Part shown: one piece after another, positions 1,398-7,949 of the stretch | Position numbering within the stretch: position 1 is the first letter of the stretch | How the letters are laid out: each line of letters starts with the position of its first letter | Assembly: GCF_056712565.1 (NCBI RefSeq) | Contig: NZ_CM160072.1 | Strand: one strand, 5' to 3' | DNA length: 64,000 nucleotides | Notes under the pieces: generated by a model | The model's database searches: none | Told to the model about the DNA's origin: nothing | Seen by the model: only the letters and a program-made list of their open reading frames with translations | Translations under genes and position numbers: made by a program

Positions 1398-2054
1398 TTA
1401 TTGCAATTGCACAAGAGTCAGTTCTCCCCCAAAGACAGCACCGGTATCAATATAATGCAGGTTGCCAATATCCACGCGATGGCGCAAAGGTGTATGACCA
1501 AACCAGAAATGATCAGCACCTGCAATTCCCTGCCCTTTTTGGCGTTCACCTAATCGCGAGCGGCTCCACAAGACCTGATGCAAATCGACGTCCTTTTGCC
1601 ATTCATAGACATCATCTGGATAATCGGCATGAGCAATAACATGTTTGCCGGTGCGACTGTGTAATTCAAGAATAAAGGGCAAATGCTGACATTTTTCCAG
1701 CGCCGTTTTCGCTTGTTTCTGGTGATTATCTGCCAGCGCAATAAACCAGTCGCCGCCATTTATCAACCATAAAGACATCTGCCGGGATGCCAGCGCATCC
1801 ATCGCCATCTGTTCATGATTGCCTCTTACCGCACGAACCCAATGTTGTTCCAGTAACTGCAGGCAACGTAAACTTTGCGGCCCACGATCGATAACGTCTC
1901 CCACTGAGATAAGTAAATCTCGCCACGGATCAAAACGACAATGCCATAATTTGCGGCGCAACTGCTCAAGACAACCGTGTATATCGCCTGAAAGCCAGAT
2001 ATGTCGCCATTGATGACCCGCAATTCTCTGATAAACGGGCGCAGGCTGTTTCAT
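1398..2054 (-). CDS. pphA: Serine/threonine protein phosphatase 1 (PphA/PrpA)
   Basis: Metallophosphatase motifs GDIHG, GDVIDRG and GNHE in the translation; start taken at second Met (218 aa). Stop abuts yebW stop. Confidence 0.92.
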   Translation of the reverse strand: MKQPAPVYQRIAGHQWRHIWLSGDIHGCLEQLRRKLWHCRFDPWRDLLISVGDVIDRGPQSLRCLQLLEQHWVRAVRGNHEQMAMDALASRQMSLWLINGGDWFIALADNHQKQAKTALEKCQHLPFILELHSRTGKHVIAHADYPDDVYEWQKDVDLHQVLWSRSRLGERQKGQGIAGADHFWFGHTPLRHRVDIGNLHYIDTGAVFGGELTLVQLQ

Positions 2055-2129
2055 CAATATTTTCCTCCCGCGCTAAAGATCACATAATCTTAACAAGAAT
2101 GTTAAAAAACGCTGGACTCAGACAGTAGA

Positions 2130-2419
2130 GTGTGTGTTATGGTTGACTATAAAGTCAGCGAAGGGAATGCTTCTGGCTTTTAACAGATAAAAAGAGACCG
2201 AACACGATTCCTGTATTCGGTCCAGGGAAATGGCTCTTGGGAGAGAGCCGTGCGCTAAAAGTTGGCATTAATGCAGGCTTAGTTGCCTTGCTCTTTAAGA
2301 ATAGATGACGACGCCAGGTTTTCCAGTTTGCGTGCAAAATGGTCAATAAAAAGCGTGGTGGTCATCAGCTTAAATGTTAAAAACCGCCCGTTCTGGTGAA
2401 AGAACTGAGGCGGTTTTTT
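2130..2419 (+). ncRNA. ryeA: RyeA (SraC) small RNA, antisense partner of SdsR; 5' end approximate
   Basis: Plus-strand transcript fully antisense to SdsR and ending at the hairpin plus T-run at 2384-2419. The 5' end is not resolved from sequence. Confidence 0.35.
2188..2291 (-). ncRNA. sdsR: SdsR (RyeB) sigma-S dependent small RNA
   Basis: Minus strand reads GCAAGGCAACUAAGCCUGCAUUAAUGCC...GUGUUCGGUCUCUUUUU, matching SdsR as recalled. Terminator hairpin at the 3' end; upstream -10 TATTCT with C at -13 (2298-2304). Confidence 0.85.
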
Positions 2420-2420
2420 A
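2377..2420. terminator. Bidirectional intrinsic terminator (RyeA 3' end and yebY)
   Basis: Stem CCGCC...GGCGG with inner GTTCT/AGAAC pairing, flanked by an A-run and a T-run. Confidence 0.75.
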
Positions 2421-2448
2421 TTGGAAATCAAAAGGCTATTTTAGGTAA

Positions 2449-2790
2449 TTAACAGAGTTTTTCAGCTCGCTCTATAAACGGTGCCAGACTCATTTTTTCG
2501 CCGGGATTGTTAGGATCATCAATCTGAATCACCGAAATGGGTTGGGCTTTAGTCTTCCCACTGGCAACTTCCTTTTGTGCGATATCGTTTAAAGGATACT
2601 GCACGAGGGTACTTGGGTTAATGACATACAAAGCATTACCCGGTCGGCAAGTCAACATCACCTCTTCGCGATTAAACGCCCATTTGTCTTTACCCACTTC
2701 AAAACGGCTGACGGTAATCACCTGCGGTGCCGCCAGCGCAGCTGCAGAACTGGTGAGTAACAGAAACGCCAGAATACTTTTTCTCATCAT
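2449..2790 (-). CDS. yebY: DUF2511 family periplasmic protein YebY
   Basis: 113-aa ORF with N-terminal signal peptide ([11 protein letters not shown]), matches YebY. Confidence 0.9.
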
Positions 2791-2802
2791 TTTCGTAATC
2801 CA

Positions 2803-3675
2803 TCAAAAAGGTTCGAGAGTCGCAAGCAGGCTGATGATCACCAGCACTACCGCACCTATCGCCCATTCGAGTTTAGTCATCCAGACAAACCAGGGAGCCG
2901 CACGATCTTCATCCTGCCTCATGCGCGGTACAAGAACATAACGATTAGCCAGCGCGATGACCACCATAATCATCACCAGGATGGCTTTGAGCAATAAGAG
3001 TTGGCCCCAGTAAGTCGTAAGCGTGGGGGGAAATCCGGTAATCAACAATGCATTAAGCACGCCGCTTGCCAGTACGCCGATCACCGCAAAATGCCCGCAC
3101 CAGGAAAAACGCATCAGCGCCTGAATAGCCTGGTGTCGCCAACGGCCTTTGATGAGTTGCATACACCAGAGCACCGGCAGTAATCCCCCAAACCACGCCG
3201 CCGCACAGATCAGGTGAATTGCGTGATTAGTCTGATGGATTTTCGCCGTTACCCCTTCATTCAACGTCGCATGCCCGACTCCCGCCAGCAGAATAAATTG
3301 CGCGGTAGTGAGCATAAACAGCAAACGTGGCATATTCCGCGGTTGCATAAGGGCGACGATCAATGTTACGAGGGCGAGAACAATTTGCCATAACCAGACG
3401 CCACCAAACTGCGTTTGCAAAACAGCCAGCCAAATGTTTGGCGAAAATACATCTGACCATCCCGTTCCCATCAACCCGCCCTGAACGGCGAGCATTGCAG
3501 TGGCACTGATCAAACTCCAGACGGCAGCGTGCTGTTGTAAACGCAGAAAACGCTTCGTCAGCAAGCGACGAATCGTTAAGGGGGCCAGCCAGGCACCGTA
3601 CATTGCGAAGCCAAAAACCAGCATCAGCGAGGTGAAATGGATAAATCGCAGCGCGATCCAGGTAAACGCCAGCAT
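2803..3675 (-). CDS. yebZ: CopD-family inner membrane protein YebZ
   Basis: 290-aa hydrophobic polytopic ORF matching YebZ; lies between yobA and yebY on the same strand. Confidence 0.9.
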   Translation of the reverse strand: MLAFTWIALRFIHFTSLMLVFGFAMYGAWLAPLTIRRLLTKRFLRLQQHAAVWSLISATAMLAVQGGLMGTGWSDVFSPNIWLAVLQTQFGGVWLWQIVLALVTLIVALMQPRNMPRLLFMLTTAQFILLAGVGHATLNEGVTAKIHQTNHAIHLICAAAWFGGLLPVLWCMQLIKGRWRHQAIQALMRFSWCGHFAVIGVLASGVLNALLITGFPPTLTTYWGQLLLLKAILVMIMVVIALANRYVLVPRMRQDEDRAAPWFVWMTKLEWAIGAVVLVIISLLATLEPF

Positions 3676-3678
3676 GAT

Positions 3679-4053
3679 TTATTTCACACTAAAGGTGTAA
3701 TGTCCTTTCGTTTTATGCCCATCCACCGAAACAACATGCCAGTCAACGGTGTAGGTTCCGGGTTTCAGCGAATCGGCCAGTGGAACAATCAGTTGCTTTT
3801 GGTCCTGCTCATTCCGCTTCGCCGGTAATGTTTTAATATTTTCGTTTTTTGGCCCCGTGATTTTTGCACCACTGAATCCTGTTTCAACGCCTTCCGAGAA
3901 GTTTAAAGTGATTGCCTGCGGAGCTGCTGTCACTTGTGCATTTGCCGCAGGATACTGATGCGTTAAATGCGCATGTGCCCAGACGGAAGGTGTCACCAAC
4001 GAAGTGGTCAGGATTGCCAGCGCGTAGCGAAGGGAGCGTGCAGTTGAAGCCAT
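3679..4053 (-). CDS. yobA: CopC-family periplasmic copper-binding protein YobA
   Basis: 124 aa; signal peptide ending VWA followed by HAHL; matches YobA. Confidence 0.9.
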   Translation of the reverse strand: MASTARSLRYALAILTTSLVTPSVWAHAHLTHQYPAANAQVTAAPQAITLNFSEGVETGFSGAKITGPKNENIKTLPAKRNEQDQKQLIVPLADSLKPGTYTVDWHVVSVDGHKTKGHYTFSVK

Positions 4054-4191
4054 ATTATCTATTCCTTTTTGTAATAACTTTTTTACAGAGCATAACCTTG
4101 TCTAATGTCTGAGTCGAGGATCATCAATTCCGGCTTGCCATCAAGGCTCACTCTTAGTAACTTTTGCCCGCGAATGATGAGGAGATTAAGA

Positions 4192-4422
4192 ATGCTGAAG
4201 AATCTGGCTAAACTGGATCAAACAGAAATGGATAAAGTGAATGTCGATTTGGCGGCGGCAGGGGTGGCATTTAAAGAACGCTACAATATGCCGGTGATCG
4301 CTGAAGCGGTTGAACGTGAACAGCCTGAACATTTGCGCAGCTGGTTTCGCGAGCGGCTTATCGCCCACCGTTTGGCTTCGGTCAATCTGTCACGTTTACC
4401 TTACGAGCCCAAACTTAAATAA
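4192..4422 (+). CDS. holE: DNA polymerase III theta subunit
   Basis: 76-aa product [32 protein letters not shown]...; ATG 4192 preceded by GAGGAG. Track ORF starts further upstream at 4105. Confidence 0.9.

Positions 4423-5202: not shown

Positions 5203-7949
<2,747 letters not shown>

Follow-up and report, generated by a model that had tools for sequence, protein, structure and literature searches.

The genes yobA, yebZ and yebY, which lie on the minus strand within the 64,000 nucleotides of DNA that were analysed (the window), are the chromosomal AZY operon of E. coli, an operon that is already known together with its function. We consider it highly likely that this operon is a high-affinity copper uptake module working by the full mechanism proposed below. 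The original prediction had read the three genes as a module for periplasmic copper capture and import, and experiments by Hadley et al. 2021 (PMC8689200) and by Palmer et al. 2025 (PMC11923076) have since demonstrated this role for the K-12 proteins, whose sequences are identical or nearly so. The prediction thus reached an experimentally supported function from the raw sequence alone and is a useful positive control. As a scan finding it contains nothing new, since the operon, the copper chemistry and the YebY crystal structure were published for the same proteins in 2021 and 2025, including a YobA-YebZ model and the physiological role, namely copper import feeding MarR-dependent multidrug resistance. 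The distribution of homologues and their genomic neighbourhoods are described in the literature as well.

Identity and layout of the locus

The positions of all features are listed in Table 1. Three closely spaced minus-strand genes, 3 and 12 nt apart, had been predicted, and the ORFs were found at exactly the predicted coordinates. The 3-nt spacer between yobA and yebZ lies in the context TAA-ATC-ATG, and 12 nt separate yebZ from yebY; because of these short gaps, the three genes are probably translationally coupled. Their order on the minus strand is the AZY-type order copC-copD-DUF2511, which is the canonical one in >97% of AZY-like loci (PMC8689200), and RefSeq annotates them as yobA, copD and yebY. 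The predicted divergence from holE was also found, with a spacer of 138 nt between yobA and holE. The annotated neighbours are rsmF, yebV, yebW, pphA, ryeA/sdsR, holE, yobB, exoX and ptrB.

All but one of 5426 complete E. coli genomes (5425) carry the locus. Given this near-universal presence and the NCBIfam and Pfam matches described below, the three ORFs are real genes and not chance ORFs. At the DNA level, several E. coli genomes match the locus with 100% identity, and K-12 matches it with 98.4% identity over 2.8 kb. The AZY operon of K-12 (yobA b1841, yebZ b1840, yebY b1839) occupies the same locus with the same order and spacing and the same neighbours pphA, ryeA/sdsR and holE; all functional residues are identical and the differences are restricted to strain-level polymorphism in YebZ and YebY. 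Mentions of yebZ in the DigH paper were set aside, as that paper names the gene only to mark where a 21-kb deletion ends, with no yebZ phenotype.

Table 1 Features of the yobA-yebZ-yebY locus and its flanks in the window.
Feature	Position	Strand	Description
yobA	3679-4053	minus	ORF, 124 aa, CopC-family periplasmic Cu(II)-binding protein
yebZ (annotated copD)	2803-3675	minus	ORF, 290 aa, inner-membrane copper importer, 8 helices by hydropathy
yebY	2449-2790	minus	ORF, 113 aa, periplasmic DUF2511 protein, Cys48-Cys113 disulfide
yobA signal peptide	3976-4053	minus	codons 1-26 (MASTARSLRYALAILTTSLVTPSVWA), predicted cut before His27
yebY signal peptide	2731-2790	minus	codons 1-20, AXA-class site ALA/APQV
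Bidirectional intrinsic terminator	2379-2418	both strands	common to yebY (-) and convergent RyeA/SraC (+)
yobA-holE divergent spacer	4054-4191	minus	138 nt; yobA promoter and 5' UTR
yobA Shine-Dalgarno region AAAAAGGAA	4062-4070	minus	core of putative FnrS pairing site
holE	4192-4422	plus	divergent from yobA

YobA carries the residues of a CopC-type Cu(II) site

YobA matched the NCBIfam YobA equivalog profile NF007636 over its entire length (residues 1-124 of 124; 264.6 bits, cut-off 129) and the Pfam profile CopC (PF04234) with 97.1 bits (cut-off 23.3), where residues 27-123 cover profile positions 1-92 of 92. The protein is 100% identical to YobA of K-12, and the published functional residues, His27 and Asp111-x-His113, are all kept. 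At the predicted cleavage point of the N-terminus, TPSVWA is followed by HAHLTH; two Arg precede the hydrophobic core (residues 13-20) and the first 25 residues contain no acidic residue. According to the (-3,-1) rule, the only AXA-class cleavage sites are 26/27 (VWA/H27) and 28/29 (AHA/H29). The original prediction had proposed a signal peptide ending in VWA, followed by HAHL, and an N-terminal histidine copper site, and had tied this proposal to a signal-peptidase site exposing a His. Both AXA-class sites do so, and His27 corresponds to the first residue of mature CopC chains deposited with the PDB, as 6tpb, 9c14 and 5icu all begin at the residue aligned to it. Predicted cleavage would thereby give YobA an N-terminal His copper site, a reading supported by the sequence. 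The calculated mass of residues 27-124 is 10.6 kDa, and YobA was purified from periplasmic extract as a mature protein of ~11 kDa (PMC8689200).

The second part of the site, Asp111-Gly-His113, lines up with VDTH in P. fluorescens CopC (6nfq); the PDB also contains a ligand mutant (6nfr) in which Phe takes the place of the residue equivalent to His113. Mature YobA contains neither Met nor Cys and thus lacks the Met-rich Cu(I) site that is present in CopC of the P. syringae type. The K-12 protein, which is identical in sequence, bound one Cu(II) with a KD of ~3 nM by ITC, and did not bind Cu(I) (PMC8689200).

YebZ is a polytopic CopD-family protein

The prediction that YebZ is a polytopic CopD-like membrane protein was borne out by eight hydrophobic segments and by matches to the NCBIfam CopD equivalog profile NF033808 (297.9 bits, cut-off 195, residues 4-290) and to Pfam CopD (PF05425; 93.3 bits, cut-off 32.1). 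The number of helices is a hydropathy estimate, taken from eight Kyte-Doolittle peaks at residues 7-25, 51-69, 92-110, 118-136, 153-171, 196-214, 225-243 and 269-287. Alternate loops differ strongly in their K+R content (16 versus 1), which points to an N-out/C-out topology. His135 and His154, which are near-invariant in the CopD family, are both present and flank loop 137-152 on the low-K+R side, and this charge difference therefore places the two residues on the periplasmic side. Compared to K-12, YebZ shows four conservative substitutions (A40T, T74S, Q83L and I93V), none of them at a known functional residue. A PDB sequence search with YebZ gave no match at E<=1, so that no CopD structure was at hand for comparison. 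Overexpression of YebZ was reported to increase cellular copper in a copper-specific and glucose-dependent manner, and H135A/H154A abolished uptake at equal expression (PMC11923076); the published uptake assay combines overexpression with whole-cell copper content, as opposed to transport in a purified system.

YebY and its relation to the lantibiotic immunity protein MlbQ

The assignment of the third gene to DUF2511 held with 152.3 bits against Pfam PF10709 (cut-off 21), as did that of a signal peptide to its product, with the site ALA/APQV, two K/R before the hydrophobic core and no acidic residue among the first 25. Residues 21-113 match PDB entry 7N0J, the sole PDB sequence match for YebY at E<=0.001, with one substitution, and the deposited chain starts at Ala21. 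The differences to K-12 are K3R and N81K, neither of which is a known functional residue. YebY was localised exclusively to the periplasm (PMC8689200).

The DUF2511 fold of YebY is shared by MlbQ (PDB 2MVO), a lipoprotein conferring self-resistance to the lantibiotic NAI-107 in Microbispora, with an RMSD of 1.84 Å, 26.9% identity and a disulfide at the same place. This close similarity to a lantibiotic immunity protein raises an alternative, namely that YebY is not a copper protein but an MlbQ-type protein that binds an envelope ligand or a peptide antibiotic, its place in the operon being that of a regulator or passenger. Its copper binding is indeed weak and requires that the structural disulfide be reduced; the only two Cys, Cys48 and Cys113, are both engaged in this disulfide and kept in the protein of the window, and ~48% of DUF2511 genes are found away from copC and copD. 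Coexpression of YebY with YebZ nevertheless reproducibly decreased copper accumulation (PMC11923076). Furthermore, yebY directly follows copD in >97% of AZY-type loci and YebZ-YebY fusions exist (PMC8689200), which speaks for YebY interacting functionally with the transporter. MlbQ itself, a lipoprotein that carries a long unstructured linker and is encoded in an ABC-transporter lantibiotic immunity operon, differs from YebY, which is a soluble periplasmic protein encoded in a copper operon. We thus regard the alternative as unlikely and YebY as part of the copper module. A remote possibility, suggested by the MlbQ-like fold, is that YebY gates copper import when an envelope-active peptide or antibiotic is present.

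Copper import as the function of the operon

Besides the effects of YebZ described above, it was reported that YobA raises and YebY lowers copper uptake by YebZ, and that an AlphaFold-Multimer model places the copper site of YobA within 5 Å of YebZ His135 (PMC11923076). In a chromosomal ΔAZY strain, the response of a CueR reporter was 3-4-fold lower, and deletion of AZY reduced a mar reporter by 80-90%, with copper-chelator epistasis (PMC11923076).

The family names and the homology of YobA and YebZ to CopC/PcoC and CopD/PcoD of P. syringae CopABCD and of the E. coli plasmid system PcoABCDRSE could also suggest a classical resistance module of the Cop/Pco type, in which YobA would sequester periplasmic copper and YebZ would aid detoxification. 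Growth of the ΔAZY strain at 0-2 mM CuSO4, however, equals that of wild type, and AZY overexpression does not rescue the copA-deficient strain GG44. Moreover, the multicopper oxidase (copA/pcoA), the outer-membrane protein (copB/pcoB) and the two-component regulator (copRS/pcoRS) of the resistance systems are absent from AZY and from its annotated neighbours, no CusR/PcoR-type box was found within 3 mismatches in the spacer upstream of yobA, and the missing Met-rich Cu(I) site of YobA speaks against this role as well. A resistance function is therefore extremely improbable in our assessment, and since ΔAZY has no copper-tolerance phenotype, the copper handling by this operon is not to be taken as copper resistance. 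As a parallel to AZY, copCD of the resistance systems alone raises copper accumulation.

A second alternative deserves more weight, and we see it as possible, if rather doubtful. It holds that YobA and YebY mainly serve to supply copper in the periplasm to membrane cuproproteins, NDH-2 for example, with import by YebZ being secondary or an effect of overexpression. In its favour, NADH oxidase activity was lost in ΔyobA, ΔyebY and ΔAZY membranes at unchanged levels of NDH-2 protein and was restored by complementation. Membranes of ΔyebZ, in contrast, had normal NDH-2 activity, which means that part of what YobA and YebY do does not depend on YebZ. The lower CueR response of ΔAZY and its lost mar induction, the latter with chelator epistasis (PMC11923076), argue against delivery as the main job, since both require cytoplasmic copper. 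The loss of uptake in the YebZ His point mutants at equal expression argues against it as well. The periplasmic delivery and import roles are, in addition, not mutually exclusive.

A related uptake system is encoded by the B. subtilis operon ycnKJI, in which YcnJ acts with YcnI and brace mutants phenocopy the deletion (PMC12362106). YcnJ differs from the separate YobA and YebZ in being one fused CopC-CopD polypeptide (PMC12362106), its accessory protein YcnI belongs to DUF1775 as opposed to the DUF2511 protein in E. coli, and the B. subtilis operon has its own copper-sensing repressor YcnK, whereas no such regulator gene adjoins the E. coli locus.

For copper import by the AZY operon, we propose the following mechanism. 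The genes yobA, yebZ and yebY would be co-transcribed from the yobA-holE spacer. YobA would be exported and cut before His27, and one periplasmic Cu(II) would be captured by the amine and imidazole of the newly exposed N-terminus along with Asp111 and His113 (a 'histidine brace' with DxH). YobA may then dock on the periplasmic face of YebZ, a putative N-out CopD protein with eight helices, and hand its copper on to His135 and His154, the pair situated at the transporter mouth, from where YebZ would move it into the cytoplasm in an energy-dependent manner. YebY, periplasmic, disulfide-stabilised and MlbQ-like, would dampen this uptake. The imported copper would supply cytoplasmic sensing by CueR and MarR, which would account for the published requirement of the operon for copper-dependent mar induction and for tolerance to quinolones and ampicillin. 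In this scheme, we infer the direct hand-off from YobA to YebZ, the oxidation state of copper during transport and the mode of action of YebY. Under anaerobiosis, FnrS would repress the operon by pairing across the yobA ribosome-binding site, and transcription would end at the bidirectional hairpin common with RyeA.

Upstream region and pairing with FnrS

The yobA-holE spacer is 98.6% identical to K-12. A scan of this spacer for sigma-70 consensus promoters gave no site at the scan threshold; according to the literature, initiation occurs at -34 and -22. Hadley et al. mention sites resembling a copper box at the same two positions, where inspection by eye revealed only TGTAA-N8-TTACA. A search of the spacer for inverted repeats with a 6-nt seed found none, and neither was the pattern TGTAA-N9-TTACA present in it, because the true spacing by eye is N8. 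The CusR-type box ATGACAANNTTGTCAT had no occurrence within 3 mismatches in positions 4054-4191; elsewhere in the window it had four matches, which is the level expected by chance.

The documented regulation of the operon is repression by the sRNA FnrS, and yobA-yebZY is among the FnrS-repressed operons tabulated by Myers et al. 2013. A lack of copper-responsive expression, which the original prediction had counted as refuting, would not count against the import role. The Shine-Dalgarno region of yobA, AAAAAGGAA, is an exact 9-nt complement of FnrS nt 52-60, and the extended duplex, computed for the single-stranded FnrS region only, has an energy of -19.6 kcal/mol. Three of the 86 start regions in the window, probably with that of yobA among them, score this well, so the predicted FnrS-yobA pairing is plausible and only moderately exceptional. 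A duplex calculated for full-length FnrS spanned 90 nt and was discarded as physically meaningless.

Terminator common to yebY and RyeA

The terminator scan did not pick up a hairpin downstream of yebY, probably because its stem contains a bulge, and the region was folded directly instead. On the minus strand, the hairpin has a folding energy of -19.8 kcal/mol (z -4.3 against shuffles) and is followed by U5. On the plus strand, an 81-nt stretch containing it has an MFE of -24.9 kcal/mol (z -3.1 against shuffles), and the hairpin is followed by U6. The 272-nt RyeA of K-12 maps to positions 2151-2422 of the window, just past the hairpin, where its 3' end at ~2422 is transferred from the K-12 annotation. 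With a hairpin and a U-run on both strands and convergent RyeA ending there, the element qualifies as a bidirectional terminator. The terminator had been predicted to be common with the SdsR/RyeA locus; this holds for RyeA on the plus strand, but not for SdsR, whose terminator is a separate one at 2195-2223.

Froehlich et al. found sdsR immediately downstream of yebY in each enterobacterium that they examined, with a variable neighbour on its other side. A single conserved functional unit made up of the AZY operon and the sRNA pair SdsR/RyeA is, to our judgement, very unlikely. Since sdsR and yebY are linked and the yebY terminator doubles as that of RyeA, read-through or terminator efficiency could couple copper import, and hence mar activation, to the sigma-S-dependent, porin-remodelling programme of SdsR. 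SdsR controls efflux components.

Identity and layout of the yobA-yebZ-yebY operon

The yobA-yebZ-yebY (AZY) operon is a real feature that had been read correctly in the original prediction, and it is already known in detail. Its three minus-strand ORFs have exactly the coordinates predicted, with gaps of 3 nt (TAA-ATC-ATG) between yobA and yebZ and of 12 nt (TGA-TGGATTACGAAA-ATG) between yebZ and yebY, and the divergence from holE was likewise confirmed. Several E. coli chromosomes, among them ATCC 11775 and NU14, share the 2.8-kb region at 100% identity, and K-12 MG1655 (b1841-b1839) matches it at 98.4%. Of 5426 complete E. coli genomes, 5425 carry the locus, under the annotation yobA, copD (yebZ) and yebY. 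Compared with the K-12 proteins, YobA shows no difference, YebZ has four substitutions (A40T, T74S, Q83L and I93V) and YebY two (K3R and N81K). All five profile scores were far above the curated cut-offs (in brackets): 264.6 bits (129) for YobA against the NCBIfam YobA equivalog and 97.1 bits (23.3) against Pfam CopC, 297.9 bits (195) for YebZ against the NCBIfam CopD equivalog and 93.3 bits (32.1) against Pfam CopD, and 152.3 bits (21) for YebY against Pfam DUF2511. Further along, exoX (5203-5865, plus strand) is intact in the window with 220 aa; in the ATCC 11775 record, which is otherwise 99.98% identical to the window, its Trp154 is replaced by a stop and the gene is annotated as a pseudogene, so the window stems from a close E. 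coli relative and not from that record itself.

Coordinates of the AZY operon and adjacent features.
Feature	Position	Strand	Remark
yobA	3679-4053	-	ORF, 124 aa
yebZ (copD)	2803-3675	-	ORF, 290 aa
yebY	2449-2790	-	ORF, 113 aa
yobA-holE spacer	4054-4191		138 nt
yobA Shine-Dalgarno region (AAAAAGGAA)	4062-4070	-	exact complement of FnrS nt 52-60
holE	4192-4422	+	divergent from AZY operon, 138-nt spacer
SraC/RyeA	2185-2329	+	Rfam
SdsR/RyeB	2189-2288	-	Rfam
RyeA	2151-2422	+	K-12 annotation transferred
SdsR	2189-2292	-	K-12 annotation transferred

Copper site and signal peptide of YobA

YobA retains His27, Asp111 and His113, and its mature part contains neither Met nor Cys. Judged from sequence, these features are characteristic of CopC proteins with a single Cu(II) site, an N-terminal His brace and a DxH motif. 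A dozen CopC homologues of YobA have been solved; in the PDB alignments, His27 falls on the first residue of the mature chains 6tpb, 9c14 and 5icu, and a deposited P. fluorescens CopC variant has Phe at the position of His113. The signal regions of YobA and YebY are alike, with two basic residues followed by a hydrophobic core and an AXA-class site. The N-terminus of YobA reads MASTARSLRYALAILTTSLVTPSVWA, followed by HAHLTH past the predicted cleavage point. Simple (-3,-1) enumeration placed AXA-class cleavage points behind Ala26 and behind Ala28, two sites that overlap within residues 25-28 (3970-3981, minus strand; VWA/HAHL and AHA/HLTH). The copper site had been predicted to require His as the first mature residue; since cleavage at either site exposes an N-terminal His, this test cannot fail on this sequence. 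Homology favours cleavage before His27 over the other site, and having both sites may serve to protect the histidine brace. For YobA purified from periplasmic extract, binding of a single Cu(II) was measured at a KD of about 3 nM, but no binding of Cu(I) (Hadley et al. 2021, PMC8689200).

Copper uptake by YebZ and its modulation by YebY

YebZ has eight hydrophobic segments and retains His135 and His154. The distribution of Lys and Arg, 16 in the odd loops versus 1 in the even loops, suggests an N-out/C-out topology in which these two histidines would flank the periplasmic loop 137-152. This loop (3220-3267, minus strand) holds two further histidines, His147 and His151, and together the four residues would form a cluster toward the periplasm. 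A sequence search gave no PDB relative of YebZ. Overexpression of YebZ raises cellular copper in a copper-specific and glucose-dependent manner; uptake is abolished in H154A and reduced in H135A, and an AlphaFold-Multimer model places the YobA copper site at most 5 Å from His135 (Palmer et al. 2025, PMC11923076). Copper accumulation with YebZ is increased by co-expression of YobA and decreased by YebY (PMC11923076). The role of YebY, initially unclear, is now partly answered as that of a negative modulator of uptake.

The only cysteines of YebY are at positions 48 and 113, and the crystal chain 7N0J matches residues 21-113 with one substitution. The protein is a periplasmic monomer with a Cys48-Cys113 disulfide and a fold like that of the lantibiotic immunity protein MlbQ, and it binds copper weakly and only once reduced (PMC8689200). 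YebY may have a role other than in copper handling: its resemblance to MlbQ and the location of roughly half of the DUF2511 genes outside copper contexts argue for it, whereas the strict copD-yebY adjacency, natural YebZ-YebY fusions and the change in uptake caused by YebY point to an interaction with the transporter.

Physiological role of the operon

Deletion of the operon (Delta-AZY) lowers the response of a CueR reporter to copper 3-4-fold and mar induction by 80-90%, and raises the sensitivity to norfloxacin, ciprofloxacin and ampicillin, with copper-chelator epistasis (PMC11923076). The experiments of Hadley 2021 (PMC8689200) and Palmer 2025 (PMC11923076) therefore support periplasmic copper capture and import, as originally proposed. 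A Cop/Pco-type role in copper resistance is contradicted by the growth data, as copper tolerance is unaffected in Delta-AZY (PMC8689200); it is also contradicted by the gene content of the locus, which lacks the oxidase, the outer-membrane protein and the two-component system. Delta-AZY has no oxidant phenotype either (PMC8689200). NDH-2 activity is lower in Delta-yobA and Delta-yebY, but not in Delta-yebZ (PMC8689200), which supports a chaperone function of YobA and YebY for membrane cuproproteins that does not need YebZ and probably exists alongside import.

Regulation upstream of yobA

Within the yobA-holE spacer, neither a CusR-type copper box (allowing up to 3 mismatches) nor a consensus sigma-70 promoter (at the threshold of the scan) was found. 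Hadley et al. (PMC8689200) mentioned sites resembling copper boxes at -34 and -22; by eye, this region holds a repeat with 5-bp arms, TGTAA-N8-TTACA, and the cited boxes are at best this weak repeat. The regulation on record for yobA-yebZY is that FnrS, an anaerobic sRNA, represses the operon. Nucleotides 52-60 of FnrS (UUCCUUUUU) form an exact 9-nt complement to yobA -17 to -9, spanning the Shine-Dalgarno sequence, and the extended duplex has -19.6 kcal/mol. Pairing this good is reached at 3 of the 86 start regions in the window, probably including that of yobA itself. The complementarity is consistent with the published repression.

Terminator and the SdsR/RyeA locus

The genes pphA and yebY flank the antisense sRNA pair RyeA/SraC and SdsR/RyeB (Rfam scores of 176 and 114 bits). 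The hairpin at 2379-2418 folds with -19.8 kcal/mol (z -4.3) on the minus strand, the 81-nt stretch containing it has an MFE of -24.9 kcal/mol (z -3.1) on the plus strand, and a U-run follows on each strand, which together indicate a bidirectional terminator for yebY and the convergent RyeA. The terminator predicted to be shared with the SdsR/RyeA locus is thus shared with RyeA, but not with SdsR, whose transcript begins beyond this hairpin and ends at a separate terminator (2195-2223). Froehlich et al. (2012) found sdsR downstream of yebY in each of the enterobacteria they examined, with a variable neighbour on its other side; this linkage of sdsR to the yebY 3' end and the common terminator are the only residual novelty at the locus. 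On the other side of the sRNA pair, pphA (serine/threonine phosphatase 1; 1398-2057, minus strand) has a TTG start and 219 aa in the mechanical ORF list, and 657 nt and 218 aa in RefSeq, where it starts one codon later.
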